Shown here: positions 4,231 through 62,916 of the stretch, piece by piece
Numbering within the stretch: position 1 is the first letter of the stretch
How the letters are laid out: every line of letters starts with the position of its first letter
Assembly: GCA_001816585.1 (NCBI GenBank)
Contig: MHCJ01000003.1
Location: forward strand, 11,013-75,012
Direction: 5' to 3'
DNA length: 64,000 bases
From: Candidatus Chisholmbacteria bacterium RIFCSPHIGHO2_01_FULL_52_32
GTDB lineage: Bacteria > Patescibacteriota > Microgenomatia > UBA1400 > Chisholmbacteraceae
Position numbers and translations under genes: made by a program
Notes under the pieces: model-generated
What the model was told of the DNA's origin: nothing
Seen by the model: the letters and a program-made list of their open reading frames with translations, nothing else
Database searches by the model: none

Positions 4231-4352
<122 letters not shown>

Positions 4353-4357
<5 letters not shown>

Positions 4358-8897: not shown

Positions 8898-11513
8898 ATG
8901 GAGATATACGATCATCGAAAGATAGAACGTCGCTGGCAGAAGATGTGGAAAGAAGCGAGGATCTATCAGCCTGATCTTCGCAAGGCAAAGAAACCGTTCT
9001 ACAACCTGATGATGTTTCCGTATCTCTCGGCAGAAGGACTGCATGTCGGGAATATGTATGCCTTTACGGGGGCGGATATCTATGGGCGATTTAAGCGGAT
9101 GCAAGGCTATGATGTGTTCGAACCCATCGGGTTGGACGGGTTTGGGATCCACTCGGAAAATTATGCAATGAAGATCGGGAAGCATCCGGCGGAGCAGGCG
9201 AAGCTGTCTCAGAAGCGGTTCTACGCGCAACTCCATGACATCGGTAACAGTTTTTCTTGGGAGAATACCCTTGAGACTTTTGATCCTGTCTATTATCGGT
9301 GGACACAGTGGCTGTTTGTGCAGATGTTTAAACACGGACTCGCGGTGCGTAAAAAGGCGATGGTGAATTGGTGCCCTTCATGCAAGACCGTTTTGGCGGA
9401 TGAGCAGGTGGAGGGAGGGGTGTGTGAGCGGTGCGGGACACCCGTTGAGCGCCGAGAGATGGCGCAGTGGTTTTTCCGGATTACCGACTTTGCAGAGCGG
9501 TTACTTGGGAACCTTGAAACGCTCAATTGGCCGGAGAAGATCAAAATCGCACAGAGGAACTGGATTGGCAGGAGGGATGGCGCAGAGGTTGGATGGGTGG
9601 TCGATGGCACCAGAGAGGTTCTTTGGACCTTCACAACGCGTCTGGACACGATTTTTGGGGCGACGTTCCTTGTTATAGCTCCTGAGCATCCCACAGTAGC
9701 GGATCTGATGAGTTCAAAGTTTAAAGTGAAAAGTGAAAAGTTAGAAAATGTAAGAGTCTACGTCGAGGCGGCGCTCAAGAAAACGGAGCAGAAGCGGAAG
9801 ACGACAGAAAAAGAGAAGACGGGCGTTGATACCGGTTTGAGGGTGATCCATCCTCTGACCGGCGGGAAAATTCCAGTCTGGATTGCCGATTTTGTGTTGA
9901 TGGATGTGGGAACCGGTGTCGTCATGGGTGTGCCTGGACACGATCAGCGCGACGGGGACTTTGCCCGGAAGCACAATCTCCCGATTATCAAGGTCATCGA
10001 TGTTGGTGGGCGGGAGGTGCAGCAGGCAGCGGTTACGGAATTTGGCAGTTTGGTGACTTCCGGGGAATTTGACGGGCTTTCTTCTTTGGAGGCGATGGAG
10101 AGGATTCTTGAGCGTTTAGCGTCGCAAGGAACGGGAAAAAAGAAAGTTGCGTACCACCTCCGTGACTGGCTGATCTCAAGGCAGCGCTATTGGGGCCCGC
10201 CGATCCCGATGATTTTTTGTGAGCAATGTGCCAAGGAGGGAAGGGCCTTTAAAGGAGACTCCCTGAAAGGTACCCTGAAAGGTATGGCGGGGTGGTGGCC
10301 GGTTCCTGAAGGGGATTTACCGGTTGAACTTCCTTTTGTTTCAGACTACAAGCCGATTGGGGACGGAAGATCTCCTCTTGAGAGGGCGTCGGAATCCTGG
10401 CTCTACACCAAGTGCCCCAGGTGCGGGGGAAGGGCCAAAAGAGAGACGGATGTGTCGGATACCTTCCTGGACAGCTCGTGGTATTTTCTTGCCTACCCAA
10501 ATCTTGGAACGGAGGAGTGGACCCGAAAAAAAATTGCTAAATTGATCAATGGTCAAATTGCTCGTAACAATACAACAATGCAACCATTTAACAATACGGT
10601 AACCCGCCGGTGGTTGCCTGTCGATGCGTATATCGGTGGCGCGGAGCATGCGGTGTTACACCTTTTGTACAGCAGGTTCGTGACGATGGCGCTTCATGAC
10701 TGGGGTTACCTTTCCTTTGAAGAGCCTTTCCCGTTTTTGTTCAGCCACGGTTTGATCATCAAGGAAGGGGCGAAGATGAGCAAGAGCCGGGGGAATATCG
10801 TCACGCCCGATGATTATATTCGAAAGTTCGGTTCTGATACATTAAGATCTTATTTGATGTTTATAGGACCATATGATCAAGGAGGAGATTTTCGCGATAC
10901 GGGGACTCTAGGGATGTACCGCTTCCTGATGCGAGTCTGGCGACTCTATCAGGAAAGTTCGAAGTTGGGGGAGAAGACGGATCCGAACCTGGTCGGGCCG
11001 CTGCACCGTATGACCAAGCAGGTGACAGAGGATCTTGAAAAGTTCCGCTTCAATACGGCTCTGGCAAAATTGATGGAGTTTATCAATGCATGGGAGGACG
11101 GGAAAATGCTTTCTTGGGATGACGCAGGGATTTTCTTGAGACTATTGGCTCCGTTTGCGCCGCATATGAGCGAGGAATTGTGGCACAATTTGCCGAAAAA
11201 ACATACCTGCCTCGATTTGAATTGTATTCTTAAAGGGTTGCGGGGAAAGCCATTTTCTCTCTCGAGCATCCATGTGGCTCCTTGGCCGGCGTATGATGTA
11301 ACGCTGGCGGCATTTGGCGATCTCGAAATCGTGGTTGAGGTCAACGGAAGGGTGCGGGGGAAGATTTTGGTTGCGGCCGAGAAGGCGAACGATCGTTCGG
11401 AGACTATTCGTCTGGCTCAAAAGATACCAGGAGTGGCAGCTCATCTCTCGGGAAAACAGATAACAAAGACGATTTGGGTGGAGGGAAAACTGGTGAATTT
11501 CGTTGTCTCGTAG
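8898..11513 (+). CDS. leuS: Leucyl-tRNA synthetase
   Basis: HVGNMYAFTGADIYGRFKRMQGYDV (HIGH region), editing domain, KMSKS motif. SD aaggag lies upstream of the ATG at 8898. Contains an in-frame heptamer tract and a REP-like insert. Confidence 0.92.
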   Translation: MEIYDHRKIERRWQKMWKEARIYQPDLRKAKKPFYNLMMFPYLSAEGLHVGNMYAFTGADIYGRFKRMQGYDVFEPIGLDGFGIHSENYAMKIGKHPAEQAKLSQKRFYAQLHDIGNSFSWENTLETFDPVYYRWTQWLFVQMFKHGLAVRKKAMVNWCPSCKTVLADEQVEGGVCERCGTPVERREMAQWFFRITDFAERLLGNLETLNWPEKIKIAQRNWIGRRDGAEVGWVVDGTREVLWTFTTRLDTIFGATFLVIAPEHPTVADLMSSKFKVKSEKLENVRVYVEAALKKTEQKRKTTEKEKTGVDTGLRVIHPLTGGKIPVWIADFVLMDVGTGVVMGVPGHDQRDGDFARKHNLPIIKVIDVGGREVQQAAVTEFGSLVTSGEFDGLSSLEAMERILERLASQGTGKKKVAYHLRDWLISRQRYWGPPIPMIFCEQCAKEGRAFKGDSLKGTLKGMAGWWPVPEGDLPVELPFVSDYKPIGDGRSPLERASESWLYTKCPRCGGRAKRETDVSDTFLDSSWYFLAYPNLGTEEWTRKKIAKLINGQIARNNTTMQPFNNTVTRRWLPVDAYIGGAEHAVLHLLYSRFVTMALHDWGYLSFEEPFPFLFSHGLIIKEGAKMSKSRGNIVTPDDYIRKFGSDTLRSYLMFIGPYDQGGDFRDTGTLGMYRFLMRVWRLYQESSKLGEKTDPNLVGPLHRMTKQVTEDLEKFRFNTALAKLMEFINAWEDGKMLSWDDAGIFLRLLAPFAPHMSEELWHNLPKKHTCLDLNCILKGLRGKPFSLSSIHVAPWPAYDVTLAAFGDLEIVVEVNGRVRGKILVAAEKANDRSETIRLAQKIPGVAAHLSGKQITKTIWVEGKLVNFVVS

Positions 11514-14440: not shown

Positions 14441-14610
14441 CCCGCCTATGTTCCAGATATTTCGTCTTGATCATTAGTCAAGACTCCATTCTGGGCACGA
14501 TTGCGGGCTAGTGGTGAGCGATACTGGGTAGTAAAGTAGCGTAAATATTTGCGACTGTATTTGAAGATTCATAGGCGGTTCCCGTTCTCTTAACCTGATA
14601 TACTGGGCAT

Positions 14611-16524
14611 ATGCTTGCAGAGGAGATCAAGGTTCAGGTTCAAAAGGCGCTCAAAGAGTTGGATTTTCCGGAGGTGCCGATTGTTATTGAGCATCCTAGT
14701 TCGGCAGAGCATGGGGACTATAGCTCGAATGTTGCGTTGCAACTTTTCGCTAAATCCGAAGCACGAAGCACGAAGCACGAAAAAACATCACAGCTCGCTA
14801 AGTATAAAACTCCTAGGGAAATCGCAAAGGCGATTGCTGACTATTTCGGATTTCGGATTTCGGATTTCGGATTTCTTCATAAAGTGGAGTTAGCGGGGCC
14901 GGGGTTTATCAATTTTTGGCTTTCCGAGCAGTTTTTGTCAGACACGCTTAAGCAGGCAATACATCTGGGAGACAGGTATGGGCAGAACGAAGCACTCAAA
15001 GGGAAAAAGATCATGGTGGAGTTTACCGATCCCAACCCGTTTAAAGAGTTTCACATTGGGCACCTGTACAGCAATGCGGTGGGGGAATCTTTGTCGCGAC
15101 TCTTGGATGCAAGTGGCGCCCAAGTAAAACGTGCGAACTACCAAGGAGATGTGGGGTTGCATGTCGCCAAGGCCCTTTATGGGCTCTTGGCGAAGTTAAA
15201 AGTTAAAAGTGAAAAGTTAAAAGTTAATGAGGAGAAGCTTAAGGAGCTTGAGAAGAAACAACTCGCAGAGCGGATCCGAATATTGGGTGAGGCGTATGCG
15301 GTGGGAGCTAAAGCCTATGAAGCGGATGAGAAAGCAAAAGCCCAGATCGAGGAGCTCAACCGAAAGATTTACGCACAGGAGCCGGATGTGATGGAGATAT
15401 ATGGGAAGGGCCGGGCCTGGAGTTTGGAGTACTTTGAGACGATTTACCGGCGGCTCGGAACCAAGTTTGATTTCTACTACTTCGAGTCGGAGGCGGGAAA
15501 AATCGGGCTTGAAGTGGTGAAGGGGGGCTTACGGAAAGGTGTTTTCGAAGAAAGCCAAGGGGCAATCGTTTTCTCCGGAGAAAAACACGGATTACATACG
15601 CGGGTCTTTGTCAACTCACAGGGTTTGCCAACCTATGAGGCAAAAGACTTGGGATTGGCGCCGACGAAATACAAGGATTTTCCCTATGACAAGTCCATCA
15701 TCATTACGGGTAATGAAGTTGATGCGTATTTCAGGGTGGTTTTGAAAGCACTGGCGCTTCTTTCCCCCGAGCTTGGGGAAAAGACGCAACATCTTTCCCA
15801 TGGGATGGTGCGGTTGCCAACAGGAAAGATGTCGAGCCGGACAGGTGAAGTGCTCACCGGCGAATGGCTCATCGATGAGGCGAAAAAGAGGATCTTGAGG
15901 ATAATGGAGCAGGGACCCTCCTTCGCAACTGCGACTTCGCGCAGACTGCCTGTTCGGCCGTTTCGCGAATCGGTTGCTTTGGAGGGTGATAAGCGCGATG
16001 GGGAAATTGTATCGCGCTTGTCAAAAGATGAGGTGGCGGAGATGGTTGGCATCGGGGCGGTCAAATATGCATTGCTTCGAGGGAGTATCGGACGGGATAT
16101 CATTTTTGACATTGATGAATCGGTGAACTTGGAAGGGAACAGCGGGCCGTACCTCCAATACACTTTTGCAAGATGCAAAAGTGTATTGGCAAAATCCGAA
16201 GCACGAAGCACGAAGCACGAAGCAGTTTCGAATTTCGATATTCGAGCTTCGAATTTGAATGCTGAGGATCTCAGCATTCTGCGTTGGTTGTATCGGTATC
16301 CGGAGGTGGTGGAGCAGGCAGTGAAGGGGTATGCACCATACTTGGTGTGTGCTTACCTCTATGGATTGGCGCAGCGATACAATGCCTTTTACAACAAACA
16401 CAGGATTGTTCAGACTAAGAAGGAAGAGGAGAGAAGGTTTCGTCTGATGATGACCAGTGCAATCGCCCAAATTCTTGAGAACGGACTTAAGCTCCTTGGT
16501 ATTGCAGCTCCGGAAACCATGTGA
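14611..16524 (+). CDS. argS: Arginyl-tRNA synthetase
   Basis: N-terminal Arg-tRNA-binding domain, HIGH-like FHIGHLYSNAVGESL, class I catalytic core, C-terminal DALR anticodon-binding domain. Four in-frame heptamer-repeat inserts. Confidence 0.92.
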   Translation: MLAEEIKVQVQKALKELDFPEVPIVIEHPSSAEHGDYSSNVALQLFAKSEARSTKHEKTSQLAKYKTPREIAKAIADYFGFRISDFGFLHKVELAGPGFINFWLSEQFLSDTLKQAIHLGDRYGQNEALKGKKIMVEFTDPNPFKEFHIGHLYSNAVGESLSRLLDASGAQVKRANYQGDVGLHVAKALYGLLAKLKVKSEKLKVNEEKLKELEKKQLAERIRILGEAYAVGAKAYEADEKAKAQIEELNRKIYAQEPDVMEIYGKGRAWSLEYFETIYRRLGTKFDFYYFESEAGKIGLEVVKGGLRKGVFEESQGAIVFSGEKHGLHTRVFVNSQGLPTYEAKDLGLAPTKYKDFPYDKSIIITGNEVDAYFRVVLKALALLSPELGEKTQHLSHGMVRLPTGKMSSRTGEVLTGEWLIDEAKKRILRIMEQGPSFATATSRRLPVRPFRESVALEGDKRDGEIVSRLSKDEVAEMVGIGAVKYALLRGSIGRDIIFDIDESVNLEGNSGPYLQYTFARCKSVLAKSEARSTKHEAVSNFDIRASNLNAEDLSILRWLYRYPEVVEQAVKGYAPYLVCAYLYGLAQRYNAFYNKHRIVQTKKEEERRFRLMMTSAIAQILENGLKLLGIAAPETM

Positions 16525-20264: not shown

Positions 20265-20350
20265 AGATAGGCATTAGGCACTAGGCAATAGGGTAGAGGG
20301 TAAAGGGAGAAGTCTTCGGTTTTCAGTCTTCAGTTTTTTAAGCCGAGTGA
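20265..20350. repeat. Heptamer repeat tract (TAGGCAx/TAGGGTA then TTCAGTC types)
   Basis: agatagg cattagg cactagg caatagg gtagagg gtaaagg ... cttcggt tttcagt cttcagt ttt. Confidence 0.75.
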
Positions 20351-29580: not shown

Positions 29581-29735
29581 CGTTTTGATTCTGGCAAGAA
29601 GTGTTGTGGCTGTCAAGCATATCCGGATGAATCTTCGAGCGGAATCCTGAAAAGAAGCAGGATTACCAACCTTGAAAGGTCAAACCTTGCAAGGTTGGGT
29701 GGACAGAGGGTTTGGATGGTCTGTACAATGAAGCT

Positions 29736-30392
29736 ATGGAATCTGCCCGAGGCTGGCGGCTGGCGGCTGTTTTTATCGCTCTTCTTGTCCTTATTGTCGG
29801 TGTTTGGATGGCGACCCGTTCTCGACAGCAAAAACCCCAGACGAAGGTGAATGAGGTGACCCTGACCCGTGGAGATGTGTCCATTACCGTGACTCGGGAA
29901 GGGGCGATGACGGTACGGACCCCTGAAGGGTTGTTTGAGCAGCAGTGGGATGAACAGCGCGTGCGGGCGTTTTTTGCCCAGTTTGAAAGCGAGGATTTTT
30001 CCCGTTTCCGCCGATTCGATGAAACAACAGAAGGGTATATGTTAACCCTTGTTTCTGATGGTGGGCAACGGACTACTTTTGTCGTGCCTTTTTTGGATAT
30101 ACCAATCCCTCCATCTGTTGAGGAATTGATCAAGGTTCTTGAAGAAGTGACGAGCGGGGGAGGTTTGCCGTCCCCGACGCCATTTCCTACGGTTGGCTTC
30201 TGGCCGACCCAGCCGCCTTTTCCGACCCCAACCCAAATGCCGTTTTATCAGCCCTTACCGACTCCGACCCCAACCCCGACGCAGGGCGGAAGTAGTGGAG
30301 GTACAGATCCCCGGCAACCCTTTACGTGCTCCTTTTCCGATCCGACGATTCGCCCCGACGTGCTCTCTGAGACGGTGTGCACGCCGGAGTAA
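29736..30392 (+). CDS. Hypothetical membrane-anchored protein with a Pro/Thr-rich C-terminus
   Basis: ATG at 29736. TM anchor RLAAVFIALLVLIVGVWMA and PTPTPTPTQ low-complexity tail. Confidence 0.4.
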   Translation: MESARGWRLAAVFIALLVLIVGVWMATRSRQQKPQTKVNEVTLTRGDVSITVTREGAMTVRTPEGLFEQQWDEQRVRAFFAQFESEDFSRFRRFDETTEGYMLTLVSDGGQRTTFVVPFLDIPIPPSVEELIKVLEEVTSGGGLPSPTPFPTVGFWPTQPPFPTPTQMPFYQPLPTPTPTPTQGGSSGGTDPRQPFTCSFSDPTIRPDVLSETVCTPE

Positions 30393-30396
30393 CCCA

Positions 30397-30480
30397 GGGT
30401 ATAGGTTTTAGGGTATAGGGTCTAGGGTTTAGGATAGGGACCTCAGTTTTCAGCCTTCAGTCTTCAGTTTTCAGTTTGTA
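30397..30480. repeat. Heptamer repeat tract (TAGGGTx then TTCAGTC types)
   Basis: gtatagg ttttagg gtatagg gtctagg gtttagg ... tcagttt tcagcct tcagtct tcagttt tcagttt. Confidence 0.75.
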
Positions 30481-30503: not shown

Positions 30504-31916
30504 CTAGAGTTCGGTCCAGGAGATGAGGTCGTAGGTCCCGAAAGAGGGGTAATAGGGCGGGGGGTTGATGGCAATGTTGGGATCGAAGGTGATGGTTCGG
30601 GTTCGGAAGCCTGAAATCGGCTCGGTGCCGAAATTCCAGTAGGATTTTTCGTATGAGATGAGGGAGCCGTAGATAGAGAGGCTGTTTCTCACGGCGCTGG
30701 GGTGGTCGCCGCAATACGAAAGATACCCGTGCCGGATGACGGCGCCTTGCTGGGCCAGGAGGGCAGCGTCGACCTCAAAATCGTCGGGAACATCACGGAC
30801 AAAGTAGATGTCATTGTTGGCGATCAGTCCCAACGCGTGGTTCCCATCTTTGGCGAGGTACTTGAGATTGTCAGTAATCCAGACGTCGGTCTTTGCGGTT
30901 TGGATGGGGAATTTGGCAGCGACGACCGTAGTTCTGCCGTTGACTGTCCCGCTTATCCAGGTGAAATCTTCGAGGAAGATGACCGGGGCATCCGAGAGGC
31001 TGTAGGTGGCAAGTAAGGTTTGGTTCTGGATGGTCTGGCGGCGGTTGGCGCAACCGTCGTTCACGGCCCAGCCGTGCTCGCGTTTGGCCGAGATCACCTG
31101 GTAGATGTCCACGGTTCCGTTGTCCTTAAAGATCAAATTATATCCGTAGTAGCCAGACGGACCATAGTAGACCCCATTGGCTTGGGCTTCACTTTTGAGT
31201 TTTCCAAAATCGTAAGAAATTGCATTAAAGTCAATGAGCGTGACAGGAAATTTCCACAGACTCTGGTCCACTCCCGTTCCCCACACTCCCGGTTTATCTT
31301 CCGGAGGGCTACAGCCCGTTTCCTTGCCGCAGACGTAGGTTTCCTGGGCGCTGGTGATGAGGGAGGTGTTGACCCCATCCTGGCGAATGCCGGTGTTCGT
31401 ATGGGCTCTGCCGTTGACCGTCATACCTGAACCTAACCAGAGGCTGGCGTTCGAGAGGAAGGCGAAACTCGCGTAGGAGGTTTGTCCGAGGCGCACGGTT
31501 ATCGACCGCTGAATGGTCGGATAGCGGAGGGTCCGGCCTGTGGATTTGATGGTGACGATGGTCGAACCCTCTCCCGGAGGTGTGATTTCCAGGCTGAAGT
31601 TTCCTATCGGAGCACCTTGGGGGTCACGGTACTCATGTTCATACGGCCCCGGACCTCCGGTGCCGTCGGAAAAGTCGGTCGGAGCTTGGAAGAGGTGCCA
31701 GCGGTAGTAGTTGATGCCTGCCTCCGCGATATGGTATGCCTGATCGCCGGCGACTTGGCGGAAGGTGAAGTCAAATTGAGTGGCGATAACCGCCAAAAGC
31801 GAGTAAATGACGATGGAGAAGATCGCCGCGGTGATGAGAAGGGAGATGAGAATAGAACCGTTCTGGGCGTAGAGCGTAGAGCGTAGAGCGTAGAGTTTAG
31901 AGCTGTGTAGTTTCAT
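30504..31916 (-). CDS. Pilin/pseudopilin-like protein (type IV pilus or T2SS minor pilin-like) with a repeat-encoded leader
   Basis: Leader MKLHSSKLYALRSTLYAQNG then a hydrophobic SILISLLITAAIFSIVIYSL (class III signal-like, Ser at +5). The leader is encoded by CGTAGAG x4 (31867-31905). Confidence 0.5.
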   Translation of the reverse strand: MKLHSSKLYALRSTLYAQNGSILISLLITAAIFSIVIYSLLAVIATQFDFTFRQVAGDQAYHIAEAGINYYRWHLFQAPTDFSDGTGGPGPYEHEYRDPQGAPIGNFSLEITPPGEGSTIVTIKSTGRTLRYPTIQRSITVRLGQTSYASFAFLSNASLWLGSGMTVNGRAHTNTGIRQDGVNTSLITSAQETYVCGKETGCSPPEDKPGVWGTGVDQSLWKFPVTLIDFNAISYDFGKLKSEAQANGVYYGPSGYYGYNLIFKDNGTVDIYQVISAKREHGWAVNDGCANRRQTIQNQTLLATYSLSDAPVIFLEDFTWISGTVNGRTTVVAAKFPIQTAKTDVWITDNLKYLAKDGNHALGLIANNDIYFVRDVPDDFEVDAALLAQQGAVIRHGYLSYCGDHPSAVRNSLSIYGSLISYEKSYWNFGTEPISGFRTRTITFDPNIAINPPPYYPSFGTYDLISWTEL

Positions 31917-32608
31917 AGATTGGTTTTAAGCGATCGGATTTGGACGAAGGGTTCCAGGCTAAACTCCGACTCCGGATGGGTAGGGTCGGCATTGACGCGA
32001 ACGGAAACTTTCACGAGCGTTACCGCATTGAGGGGGGCCGGTGTAGACAGCGGATTGGTGGTGGTTTCCACCGGCCAATCTTGGTTGTAGTAGGAGAAGA
32101 CGGGCGATGCTCCGTTTCTGATGTCCTCGGCAACGGTTTTTACCTGTTCGTTCTCCGAGGGATAGGAGACGGGAAAGCCGGTCGGTTGGACCGTTCCCTT
32201 CTTTAGCTCCGTTCCGTCAAGGTAATAGCGGACGTGCTCGATTTGCGGATCCGAGTCGACGTTGGCATAAAAAATAATTTCCTGCGCATCGGCCTTTTCA
32301 AGCGGAAAGGAGCCTGCCTCGGATGGGCGACTGCTTCGAAGCTCGTCGGTGAGCGTTCGCAGGGAAGCATTGGCGTTCTCAATCGTAAAGATCGTCCGGA
32401 GGGAAAAATTCTCGCTCGTTCCTAAGGATGACTGGAGGGCAACCACCGTGCCAAGGAGAGCGACGAAAATCGACATACCGATAAGAATTTCGATCATGGT
32501 AAACCCGGCTCGCCCTTGGCGAGAGTTAAAAGTTAAAAGTGCAAAGTTAAAAGTTGAAGATCGGGTTATACTGTCTTGGAGTTTTGTACTCAATTTTGAA
32601 TTTTTCAT
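31913..32608 (-). CDS. Type IV prepilin-like protein (canonical N-methylation motif)
   Basis: ...QGRAG|FTMIEILIGMSIFVALLG (G-F-T-x-I-E consensus). Best start is ATG at 32608 (MKNSKLSTKLQDSITRSSTFNFALLTFNSR...), not the track's 32863. The leader contains a GTTAAAA heptamer tract. Confidence 0.65.
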   Translation of the reverse strand: MKNSKLSTKLQDSITRSSTFNFALLTFNSRQGRAGFTMIEILIGMSIFVALLGTVVALQSSLGTSENFSLRTIFTIENANASLRTLTDELRSSRPSEAGSFPLEKADAQEIIFYANVDSDPQIEHVRYYLDGTELKKGTVQPTGFPVSYPSENEQVKTVAEDIRNGASPVFSYYNQDWPVETTTNPLSTPAPLNAVTLVKVSVRVNADPTHPESEFSLEPFVQIRSLKTNL

Positions 32609-32627
32609 TTTGACTTTTGTACTTAAT

Positions 32628-33965
32628 TTACAGCGAATCGAGTTGGATGGTGCTTTCGGTTTGGCCGGAGACTTCGATCGTATCGGATTTCGGCATGAAG
32701 CCTTCCTTAGTGATCTGGGCGGTGAAGTTTCCGGAGGAGAGGGGGCTGAAAAAGGCCTGGCCGAAATCCGGAACATTCGCTTCGCCGGTGAATATGGTTT
32801 CATCGAAGTTTCCCGGACCCGTGAGATGGGCGCTGGCGCTGGCGATGGCCGATCCCGAGGCATCGGTCACGGCCAGGAGCAGGGAATCGGGGCTATGGAC
32901 TGCGGAGGCAAATGCCAAATCCAGAGAAGTATTCGGATAGAGGACGACGGGTCGGAGCGGGTTGGTTCCTGCAAGGTCCCAGGCACCGGGAGGGATAGTC
33001 AGTTGGTAGCTATCCCACTCCATGCCGGAAAGGCTGAGCGTGCCAGTCGGAGCAGTCTGGAGCTGTTTGTTGTACTTCGGAACGGGATCACCCAGACTGT
33101 CGAAACCTATGGTTTTTCCGCCCCTGAGGGTGAAGATTTGGTTCGGGAGGGTTCCGTAGCTGAAGTCCCGATCCCTCTTTGAGAAAATTATGAGGGTCGA
33201 GGTGTGATCGATTGCAAAGCTTACTTCCGTTACCTGGCCTTCGATCAGGGTGGCATGGGGCTTTGCCGGATTTGTCACTTCGAGGCTTGAGTACGTGCGG
33301 TCGGTCGAAAAGTCGGTTTTGGTTGCGGTAATCTGGTAACAATTGGTACATGTTGGGGCTCCGGGGAGGATGATGCGGCCATCATCGGCGGTCTGAAGGG
33401 TGAGGTTTACTGGCGGGGAAACCTCGTTATTGACGATTGTTACATCGGCTTGTGAAACAGGCTGGGCGCTTGAGTCGAACACGAGGATTGCGAGCGTGCC
33501 CCCTCCTGCCGCGGCATTCGAGGCAATGTCGGTCACGAGGGTGACCGACTCTCCGGCAACAAATCTCCCTGTCCAGGAAACATCTACCCGGATGCGTTTG
33601 TAGTCGGCAGGACTAAGGTCGGACGGAGCTACCTGATCAAAGGGGTCATCGATGTAGATCACTGCGGTTCGCACTGTGTACGTCAGCCCGTTTCTGTCGA
33701 CACTTTCTTGTTGGGGAATTACTCCTTGGGGGATTCCGCCGACCACACCGAGTGAAGCATAGGGAAGGTTGTGCAGTTGTTCAATTTTTTCATTTCCCAA
33801 CTGCCTTGCGGTGATGCGGGTTCGAGAATTTCCGAGAAGATCGTAGGCGGCGATAATGAGGCTTCCGAACGCATGAAAGAGGATGATGAGGATCCCAAGA
33901 CCAACGAGGGCTTCGATGAGGCTTTGACCATGCTCTGAATATCGGTGGGGCAGAGCGGACTTCAT
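32628..33965 (-). CDS. Pilin/pseudopilin-like large protein
   Basis: N-terminal ...EHGQSLIEALVGLGILIILF (prepilin-like G-x-x-L-I-E plus a hydrophobic helix), then a 400-aa beta-rich extracellular region. Confidence 0.5.
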   Translation of the reverse strand: MKSALPHRYSEHGQSLIEALVGLGILIILFHAFGSLIIAAYDLLGNSRTRITARQLGNEKIEQLHNLPYASLGVVGGIPQGVIPQQESVDRNGLTYTVRTAVIYIDDPFDQVAPSDLSPADYKRIRVDVSWTGRFVAGESVTLVTDIASNAAAGGGTLAILVFDSSAQPVSQADVTIVNNEVSPPVNLTLQTADDGRIILPGAPTCTNCYQITATKTDFSTDRTYSSLEVTNPAKPHATLIEGQVTEVSFAIDHTSTLIIFSKRDRDFSYGTLPNQIFTLRGGKTIGFDSLGDPVPKYNKQLQTAPTGTLSLSGMEWDSYQLTIPPGAWDLAGTNPLRPVVLYPNTSLDLAFASAVHSPDSLLLAVTDASGSAIASASAHLTGPGNFDETIFTGEANVPDFGQAFFSPLSSGNFTAQITKEGFMPKSDTIEVSGQTESTIQLDSL

Positions 33966-34078
33966 TGCTGTTTTCAGTATAGCAAATGGCCGATGGCTGA
34001 TGGCAAATGGCTGATGGCTAATGGCAGATAGCAGAGACCTAAACCCTAACCCTAAACCCTAGACCCTAGACCCTTCTT
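33966..34078. repeat. Heptamer repeat tract (ATGGCTG/ATGGCAA then CCTAAAC/CCTAGAC types)
   Basis: aatggcc gatggct gatggca aatggct gatggct aatggca gatagca ... cctaaac cctaacc ctaaacc ctagacc ctagacc. Confidence 0.75.
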
Positions 34079-45908: not shown

Positions 45909-46030
45909 AGATAGGGGATAGGGTTTAGGGTTTAGGGTTTAGCATTCATTTTCAATCATCAGTCTTCAGTTCTCAGTCATCAGCCATTAGCTATTGGCCA
46001 TCTACTATCTGCCATACGCCATTTGCACTC
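45909..46030. repeat. Heptamer repeat tract (TAGGGTT x3 then CAGTCTT/CAGCCAT/CTGCCAT types)
   Basis: gatagggtttagggtttagggtttagc ... cagtctt cagttct cagtcat cagccat tagctat tggccat ctactat ctgccat acgccat ttgcact. Confidence 0.8.
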
Positions 46031-47615: not shown

Positions 47616-47714
47616 AACATAGGGTATAGGGTTTAGGGTATAGGGTTTAAGTGGCATGTGACGTTTTCGTTTTCACTTTTGACTTTTGAGATTTGACTTT
47701 TGCGTATATTACCC

Positions 47715-62149: not shown

Positions 62150-62689
62150 TTAGTTTGCGGGTTTAGCTTCTTTTATTGCTTTAAGAACAAAGACGAGTTT
62201 TTTGTAGTTTCCCGAAAGGACATGGACAAGGCGTGATATCGGTGTGTTCAGCGAGCCGATGAGCTGGGATCGGAGTTGGTCTTTGGTCGGAAGCTCGGCG
62301 AGCTCGTTAATCTCTTCTTCGGACAGCAGTCTCTCCGACGGTTTTAGCCAGATACCAAGCTTGGATTTTGGCAACTCATGTTCCTTGGAAAATTCAATGA
62401 GTGCCTTGATCGGAGCGATCTCGTCCTCAAAGGCAAAAAGGAAGGCTGTTGGACCCCGCAAAACGTCTTCGACGTCGCGGGGCAAGCCCTTTCTCTTCTC
62501 TTGAAATGCGAGCTTAAAGAGCGTGTTCTTGGCAACGAGGAATTGGCCACCGGTTTGGGTTATTTTTTCCCTGAGATCCCGTTGGAGATTCACCGGAAGG
62601 CCCGAATAATCTGAAAGGATGACCAGCTTTGCACGGGAGAGCTTGTCTGAAAGGTCCCGGACGGCAGTGATGTTTTGTTGGGAAGGCAT
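62150..62689 (-). CDS. rplJ: 50S ribosomal protein L10
   Basis: MPSQQNITAVRDLSDKLSRAKLVILSDYSGLPVNLQRDLREKI, located immediately upstream of rplL. ATG at 62689; the track ORF extends to 62779 through the repeat tract. Confidence 0.88.
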   Translation of the reverse strand: MPSQQNITAVRDLSDKLSRAKLVILSDYSGLPVNLQRDLREKITQTGGQFLVAKNTLFKLAFQEKRKGLPRDVEDVLRGPTAFLFAFEDEIAPIKALIEFSKEHELPKSKLGIWLKPSERLLSEEEINELAELPTKDQLRSQLIGSLNTPISRLVHVLSGNYKKLVFVLKAIKEAKPAN

Positions 62690-62745
62690 ACAGATAGGGT
62701 TTAGGGTATAGGGTCTAGGGTTTAGTGTCTCGAATAAAAGAAAGC
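62690..62745. repeat. Heptamer repeat tract (TAGGGTx) in the rplJ leader
   Basis: cagatagggtttagggtatagggtctagggtttagtgtctcg. Confidence 0.75.
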
Positions 62746-62916
62746 AGAAATAAAAAACTTCTCCGCGGGGAGAAGTCACAAAAAAAAGACTTTTTCTCCT
62801 CGGCAGGACTTACGTTATGCCTGCTGTCTTCGGACGAATCAGATTGTAGGGGTTTGGGGAAGGCTTGTCAAGCCTTGTCATTGTTTGTTCGTTTGGAAAA
62901 CCGCAAACTTGTAGGC

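Follow-up and report, generated by a model that had tools for sequence, protein, structure and literature searches.

Beggiatoaceae and cyanobacteria have many heptamer arrays near their start and stop codons (PMC4679880), as do Xanthomonas and Nostoc (PMC4692102). Heptamers are the commonest class of long simple-sequence repeat in most surveyed prokaryotic genomes, and slippage of the polymerase with a 7-nt footprint is their proposed cause (Mrazek 2007, as cited in PMC4679880). Heptamer repeats that fall inside open reading frames (ORFs) sit at protein ends (PMC4679880). A precedent of another kind is phase variation through CTCTT repeats in the leader-peptide region of Neisseria opa (PMC3960869; bioRxiv 10.1101/2020.09.16.300947). 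The present analysis concerns two heptamer tracts in the leaders of two adjacent pilin-type genes of Candidatus Chisholmbacteria bacterium RIFCSPHIGHO2_01_FULL_52_32, which belongs to the candidate phyla radiation (CPR). The genes lie in a stretch of 64,000 nucleotides, hereafter the window (contig MHCJ01000003.1, positions 11,013 to 75,012 of the forward strand), within which all coordinates are given unless a comparison locus is named. Both tracts are probably ordinary heptanucleotide long simple-sequence repeats (LSSRs), drawn from a genome-wide population of such arrays, and no dedicated on/off switch.

Three genes, designated C, B, and A, form a head-to-tail row on the minus strand with C first, and the order C-B-A was also found in relatives. 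Gene A (30504..31916, minus strand) encodes 470 aa, gene B (31913..32608, minus strand) encodes 231 aa, and gene C (32628..33965, minus strand) encodes 445 aa, with a prepilin-like N-terminus (MKSALPHRYSEHG|QSLIEAL), a CarboxypepD_reg domain, and a leader that lacks an array. The ATG of gene A (31916) overlaps the stop codon of gene B as ATGA. Using Tandem Repeats Finder (TRF), a heptamer array was located in the leader of A and another in that of B, as a preliminary description of the window had claimed. The array in gene A (31867..31903, minus strand; period 7, 5.3 copies, 90% matches, score 60, plus-strand unit GCGTAGA) encodes residues 5-17 of the 20-residue leader (MKLHSSKLYALRSTLYAQNG) and reads AGCTCTA AACTCTA (CGCTCTA)x3 CG on the coding strand; it holds four perfect copies of CTCTACG (28 bases, 31868-31895), flanked by AGCTCTA and AACTCTA (about one degenerate copy), and a strict period scan placed it at 31867-31895. 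The array in gene B (32524..32555, minus strand; period 7, 4.6 copies, 84% matches, plus-strand unit AGTTAAA) reads AACTTTT AACTTTG CACTTTT AACTTTT AAC on the coding strand and encodes ..TFNFALLTFN.. within an unusually long leader of 35 residues, which ends in ...SRQGRAG and precedes the mature N-terminus FTMIEILIG (...SRQGRAG|FTMIEILIGMSIFVALLG). A third, degenerate array (32592..32619, minus strand; CAAAAGT CAAAATG AAAAATT CAAAATT; TRF period 7, 4.0 copies, 76% matches) sits in the 19-nt gap between genes C and B and includes the ATG of gene B (32606-32608).

Neither tract is separated from the conserved Gly by an ATG, GTG, or TTG, and the tracts must therefore be translated if the conserved N-termini are to be made. 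The sole such codon upstream of the hydrophobic segment of gene A is the ATG at 31916, and starts upstream of ...RAG|FTMIE in gene B are limited to ATG 32608 and TTG 32593. It is highly improbable that the true starts lie downstream of the tracts and that the tracts are untranslated 5' sequence. Some gene callers do begin gene B at Met38 (MIEIL...), giving proteins of 194 aa (P0125, P0126), and the upstream ATGs are not supported by a Shine-Dalgarno sequence; a start at Met38 would, however, remove the G|FTMIE cleavage motif recognised by the Pfam and TIGR models, gene A offers no start ahead of its invariant Gly20 and helix, and in every species examined the reading frame runs open through the arrays. 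The 194-aa proteins, considered also as frameshift alleles and rejected as such, derive from DNA identical to that of the window and represent gene-caller start choices. The gene B array, moreover, carries the exact substitution that avoids a stop: one deviant copy reads AACTTTG CAC in place of AACTTTT AAC, and restoration of the consensus in silico produced an in-frame TAA. The interruption at exactly this copy is a mark of selection for a stable open frame. When one or two units were added or removed in silico, A or B was truncated (products of 29-108 residues), as the preliminary description had anticipated for a change in unit number, and a change of three units kept the frame.

Gene B is a genuine prepilin with a class III signal peptide, as it scored above the cut-off of both Pfam N_methyl (PF07963; score 21.3, cut-off 21.2, E 2e-4) and TIGR02532 (score 18.2, cut-off 16.3, residues 33-54); it is a type IV prepilin-like minor pilin, and its UniRef name is GspJ-like. 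The earlier designation of both genes as prepilins stands for B and needs amendment for A, in which position +5 is Ser, not Glu, the N_methyl match is weak (E 0.47), and the matches to NCBIfam GspK and ComGG are weak and far below cut-off. A missing Glu5 is typical of GspK- and PilX-type minor pilins. The gene A family comprises 856 homologues from Microgenomates and other CPR bacteria, and Gly20 is invariant across 30 homologues. The AlphaFold model of gene A (mean predicted local distance difference test score 83) shows residues 1-20 disordered, a long N-terminal helix at 22-77, and a beta-rich domain. The top Foldseek match, and the sole strong one among solved structures, was ComZ of Thermus (6qvi; E 1.8e-10, with a TM-score of just ~0.26 and 13% identity). 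From the absence of Glu at +5 and the ComZ fold match, gene A is predicted to be a large minor pilin of the ComZ/GspK/PilX kind and not a canonical prepilin. No pilus-machinery protein was detected among the 18 window ORFs scanned against Pfam, a search near the locus for pilus machinery or a prepilin peptidase returned at 39-52 kb glycosyl enzymes and proteins without matches, and Rfam gave no match at the pilin locus. Type IV pilus loci that include PilD are reported to occur widely among CPR bacteria (PMC7143001).

The two tracts belong to a large population of arrays. Our own period scan (periods 4-12, compared with first-order Markov shuffles) returned, under strict settings, 12 arrays at period 7, none at periods 4-6 and 8-12, and none in the shuffles; at a TRF score of at least 40, there were 22 arrays at period 7 and 4 at the other periods from 4 to 12. 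About 36 period-7 arrays are present in the window, approximately one per 1.8 kb, and array copy numbers range from 2.3 to 9.3 (TRF). Twenty of the 36 lie between genes, where arrays of two unlike units often form a pair directly past a stop or ahead of a start, and 10 lie in frame inside housekeeping genes (RadA, 4; ArgS, 5; LeuS, 1). They adjoin genes of every kind, including those for glycosyl enzymes, tRNAs, and ribosomal protein L10, and no association with surface genes was seen in the window. The RadA gene (342-1757) contains arrays at 464-482, 697-731, 756-771, and 854-873, which fill insertions missing from the RadA proteins of S. pneumoniae and basal Microgenomates; following the Walker A motif there is a hypervariable insertion site, at which basal Microgenomates have nothing inserted and relatives of the Chisholmbacteria have as many as ~60 residues. 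The LeuS gene (8898-11513) has its array at 9711-9743, and those of ArgS (14611-16524) are at 14757-14781, 14843-14875, 15193-15227, and 16197-16260. Because the repeat class is present inside aminoacyl-tRNA synthetases, it cannot, as a class, be an on/off device.

A comparative census was made over 139 distinct CPR loci with a gene A homologue. Leaders of the homologues range from 3 to ~40 residues, and in 20 of the 139 loci (14%) a heptamer array was found within the 130 bases ending at the invariant Gly. The units of these 20 leader arrays are nearly all different, and the frame is open from an upstream ATG in every one; in 14 other species, too, every array found past the start codon and ahead of Gly20 leaves the frame open. 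That leaders tolerate repeat insertion, another point of the preliminary description, is thereby upheld. Among the 174 canonical G|FTLIE prepilins of these loci, 24 (14%) have an array no more than 100 bases upstream of the cleavage site. Across the 139 loci, period 7 accounted for 250 arrays, period 6 for 110, and period 8 for 116. Array density per kb was 1.12 in the gene A leader window, 1.33 in canonical prepilin leaders, 0.585 in non-coding DNA, and 0.052 in coding DNA, so that the density in the gene A leader window is 20 times that of coding sequence and of the same order as that of non-coding sequence. Pilin leaders behave like non-coding DNA, with perhaps a two-fold excess of arrays.

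The leaders also change rapidly between close relatives. In clusters of at least 90% identity with array-bearing leaders, the leader is wholly replaced while the mature protein is almost unchanged (MRILKISICHQPFAISHQNG versus MRKPSQGLHNNSLHERG; MKTINNQQLTINNQSG versus MKYQILNISCQKG and three more versions), and in array-free clusters of the same identity the leader length is constant. Pilin junctions are therefore sites of frequent array gain and loss, with the frame requirement acting as a filter. In four related lineages, prepilin leaders bearing CAAAATG-type arrays differ in length by 0, 6, and 9 nt; these are multiples of 3 and not of 7, and were therefore counted as in-frame evolution. 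The longest leader array seen is that of a Falkowbacteria prepilin (..G|FSLIEVL; locus L097, 7021-7085), with CGTTATG x9.3; this locus has 9 period-7 arrays in 21 kb, from which heptamer-rich genomes appear to be sporadic across the CPR. In two distantly related lineages (L181 330-480, L182 1460-1500), a repeated 9-mer, TAATTGACC, takes the place of heptamer arrays at the B-A junction and includes TTGACC, which resembles a -35 box.

Variation in tract length was sought by taking the locus from 15 assemblies of different samples, in which the tract of gene A could be read in 12 and that of gene B in 11. Ten of the contigs were retrieved with a query running from Met38 of gene B to its stop, which includes neither tract, and constitute an unbiased subset. 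These assemblies are consensus sequences, mostly from one aquifer, and at that level no copy-number variant was found: all 12 gene A tracts and all 11 gene B tracts are identical to those of the window. Fifteen further groups of near-identical loci from other species, formed by identity over the first 300 bases past Gly20, showed no difference in tract length. An exact-pattern scan of metagenome contigs for the gene A tract, with a variable gap, gave no match and is uninformative, as the species is absent there (best relative 65% identical). An off allele of gene A was observed in two independent assemblies (L008 and L011), in which GGA is changed to TGA and Gly87 to a stop (window ~31656-31658); part of the population appears to have lost the ComZ-like pilin A by point mutation, not by a repeat change. 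A contig representing an allele of window 32500-32630 (L017 1-130) has a wholly different C-B junction, in which AAAGTKN x5 precedes the ATG, and a gene B leader (MNQKTNKRISYKLQAQAG) that contains a TACAAGC-like array; the first 30 bases of the mature part of its gene B carry synonymous changes, and the sequence is identical beyond. Leader replacement of the kind seen in the clusters is thus also present in gene B; the contig represents a recombinant allele or else a chimera produced in assembly at the end of a contig.

The preliminary description had proposed that the tracts serve as a phase-variation device for pili, and this part was not borne out. In such a model, as in opa, slipped-strand mispairing would shift the leader frame and toggle A and B in a subpopulation. 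The geometry fits, with tracts between the start codon and the mature protein and truncation by one or two units; non-triplet arrays with differing units recur at the leader position in the census counts given above, a relative reaches 9.3 copies in a prepilin leader, and gene A is dispensable in part of the population, as its nonsense allele shows. No length variant, however, was present in any assembly examined, the arrays are short (3-6 copies) and frequently interrupted, identical array types lie inside ArgS, LeuS, and RadA, where switching would be harmful, lengths among relatives differ by multiples of 3, the observed off allele is a point mutation, and the window arrays have no link to surface genes. 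The Opa-like model is mechanically valid, but the tests that were run came out against it or neutral, and we regard it as unlikely.

The favoured explanation, that the tracts are ordinary heptanucleotide LSSRs, may be set out as follows. Arrays would arise and turn over fast wherever sequence is weakly constrained, and would be sparser in many other CPR genomes. In the pilin row they would be born at the C-B and B-A gene junctions and would be translated because the sole start codons lie upstream of them. The demands on a pilin leader would be limited to three, a start codon, a frame without stops, and the ...G context for cleavage, so that arrays could persist there, and prepilin peptidase would presumably remove the array-bearing leader; arrays would thus be tolerated in the pilin genes because the leader is unconstrained and probably cleaved. 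Purifying selection would keep the leader arrays in frame and free of stops, and the arrays would lengthen and diversify the leader. We infer the cleavage of the leaders of A and B, the role of slippage as generator of the arrays, and the lack of a switching function of the tracts.

Several observations weigh against this explanation. The tract of gene A is a perfect 4-copy heptamer, long enough for some slippage, and minority length variants are invisible in consensus assemblies, most of whose samples come from one aquifer population. The gene A leader holds arrays about twice as often as generic non-coding DNA, an excess estimated at 3- to 8-fold if the target is taken as the ~30-45 nt from the gene B stop to Gly20; it could reflect selection, for example on mutability or translation initiation. 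Unit families also recur across genes and species (CGAAGCA/STKHEAR in ArgS here and in RadA elsewhere), for which local slippage is no obvious cause.

A selected role at translation initiation is one form that such selection could take, and the arrays would then be cis elements at gene boundaries, either G-poor stretches free of structure or sites for protein binding, that aid initiation or re-initiation where a Shine-Dalgarno sequence is lacking, their translation being incidental. Such a role has been hypothesised for TAACTGA repeats upstream of start codons in Beggiatoaceae (PMC4679880). The leader arrays are poor in sense-strand G (8.6%; array-free leaders have 14.6% and the gene body 22.8%), genes A and B lack a Shine-Dalgarno sequence, in many window genes a TATACT/TATAAT box precedes the ATG by 6-10 nt, an arrangement known from leaderless mRNAs, the ATG of gene B lies in an A-rich array 19 nt past the gene C stop while that of gene A overlaps the gene B stop, and the leader regions are no more structured than shuffles. 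The units, however, are wholly different between species and even strains and share no conserved binding motif, most homologues have leaders of 3-10 residues without an array, and many arrays lie downstream of genes or in coding regions, where the role is inapplicable; this explanation is considered quite unlikely. An RNA hairpin switch was also considered and rejected: the arrays around the gene B start are partly complementary, yet folding of 32480-32640 gave a z of -0.10, and the gene A leader (z +0.34 versus shuffles) showed no hairpin. The pattern of a TATACT, TATAAT, or TATCAT box 6-10 nt before the ATG without a Shine-Dalgarno sequence, seen at many genes (e.g. 14590-14613, 33976-33981, and the 36720 region), suggests widespread leaderless or near-leaderless mRNAs.

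The recurrence of unit families also bears on a more speculative possibility. CPR bacteria may have an active process, possibly one dedicated to the task, by which heptamer arrays are inserted at gene junctions and at coding sites that tolerate them; the pilin genes would then have interchangeable leader cassettes whose unit number and identity would switch or tune the ComZ-like tip pilin. Shared unit families, complementary pairs of arrays, and whole-leader replacement between strains would fit such a process, which we nevertheless hold to be decidedly improbable. As for a mobile-element origin, a Y1 transposase gene is present near the orthologous locus in a sister species, but nothing ties the transposase to the arrays, and this candidate was rejected.

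Other arrays of the window have features of their own. Upstream of gene C, an array pair (33982..34074, minus strand) consists of AGGGTNT x5, which begins 6 nt past the stop of the upstream gene, followed by TGCCATN x7; after it, 10 nt ahead of the gene C ATG, comes TATACT (33976-33981), a putative promoter that a sigma-70 scan did not call. A second pair (30396..30477) lies between the convergent ends of gene A and ORF 29712..30392 and is composed of an AGGGTAT-type array (30396-30433) and a TCAGTTT-type array (30443-30477); no hairpin terminator was found in it or around the pilin genes, and the sigma-70 promoter and terminator scans gave no excess over shuffles. A sister species (L019) also has an array pair downstream of gene A, with units TATAGCT and CCCTATA. 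The unit GCCATNN (peptide ISHQPFAIS) occurs upstream of gene C here and in the gene A leader of a sister species. G-rich (GGGN4)n arrays with units TAGGGTT, AGGGTTG, and AGGGTCT were found at 4316-4353, 20291-20307, 30411-30427, 34050-34073, 45914-45937, and 47622-47645; they start 0-27 nt past a same-strand stop, have 3-6 G-tracts, and are candidate G-quadruplex elements at 3' ends.

Within ArgS (14750-14882), a CGAAGCA array is complementary to an ATTTCGG/TTTCGAA array and brackets with it a conserved ArgS segment, forming a periodic hairpin of -39.7 kcal/mol (shuffles, -24.2 kcal/mol; z -4.55, 0 of 200 shuffles as stable). A second complementary pair in ArgS (16190-16268) gave z -2.81, and four other array pairs tested were not complementary (z +1.1 to +1.8). 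CGAAGCA (peptide ..STKHEAR..) occurs twice in ArgS (14757-14781 and 16197-16224) and also in RadA of other CPR bacteria; the recurrence of this family and of GCCATNN involves proteins P0134, P0138, P0144, and P0193. An Rfam L10_leader match was obtained at 62742-62851 on the minus strand, and the adjacent heptamer array at 62694-62730 lies between it and the Pfam L10 domain of ORF 62150..62779. GC skew on the plus strand is strong and uniform (~+0.1 to +0.2) across the greater part of the 64 kb, reminiscent of a disparity in strand composition that has been reported from another Microgenomates genome (PMC7143001).

Should the tracts prove to be switches after all, CPR bacteria would gain their first described phase-variation system, one that acts on pili with a presumed part in attachment to the host and in DNA uptake, and an array-writing process with leader cassettes would amount to a contingency system in obligate episymbionts. 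The more interesting result is the capture of arrays by pilin leaders together with in-frame arrays in essential enzymes, into which 7-nt arrays can evidently be written in frame. Pilin leader peptides evolve like non-coding DNA, and gene callers therefore often misplace pilin start codons. The arrays mark hypervariable sites and are possible strain markers. The genome-wide pattern, with its post-stop arrays of G-quadruplex potential, the complementary pair in ArgS, and the shared unit families, may deserve more attention than the two tracts.

Comparison with known systems may begin with the opa genes of Neisseria (PMC3960869), which likewise have a non-triplet repeat between the start and the mature surface protein, so that unit number shifts the frame. 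Switching in opa has a measured rate of ~1e-3 per cell and generation, and repeat numbers both in and out of frame are on record. The tracts described here differ in having 4-5 copies, one of them interrupted, and in being invariant in all assemblies; the leader is that of a prepilin (class III) and not a Sec signal peptide, and the repeats are not confined to surface genes. The heptamer tract of hmw1A and hmw2A in Haemophilus influenzae is reportedly intergenic (promoter or 5' UTR, the untranslated region) and longer, and is said to grade expression without a frame shift. This simple-sequence repeat is reported to be tied to adhesin expression (PMC8262952, PMC12721329).

ComZ of Thermus thermophilus (6qvi) and gene A both have the build of a large pilin, in which a beta-rich domain accompanies a long N-terminal helix, and both are encoded beside small minor pilins. 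ComZ is a competence-associated minor pilin, but its identity to gene A is only 13% and the TM-score 0.26, and DNA binding by gene A at the pilus tip would be an extrapolation. We know of no repeat-encoded leader for ComZ. Rickettsia palindromic elements also occur within ORFs, in frame at tolerant sites, and are palindromes of ~100-150 bp, not tandem arrays. In Borgs, the repeat units inside ORFs are reportedly multiples of 3, whereas the units here are of 7 nt, so that just the total length is constrained. In the Borg report (PMC9879509), tandem repeats are, like the arrays here, in frame at tolerant protein sites, fast-evolving, and different between close relatives, and are described as creating disordered regions.

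The closest correspondence is with the heptanucleotide LSSRs, namely the cyanobacterial STRR (short tandemly repeated repetitive sequences), the TAACTGA repeats found in Beggiatoaceae, cyanobacteria, and Bacteroidetes, and the GGGNATC repeats found in Xanthomonas and Nostoc (PMC4679880, PMC4692102), which show the same period-7 excess as found here. In both cases there are 2-6 copies per array and many arrays per genome, and the arrays are mainly non-coding, hugging start and stop codons, with occasional occurrences in ORFs at protein ends or tolerant sites. Six of the 9 non-coding GGGN4 arrays here lie within a few tens of bases past stops on the sense strand, like the repeats of PMC4692102. 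The arrays described here differ in that the host has a reduced CPR genome, many unrelated units are present with none dominant, a quarter of the arrays are translated (ArgS, LeuS, RadA, and pilin leaders), and one pair is complementary. Literature searches on CPR, Patescibacteria, and Microgenomates returned no earlier description of heptamer repeats, and the tracts are further members, in a new phylum, of a known heptanucleotide repeat class.

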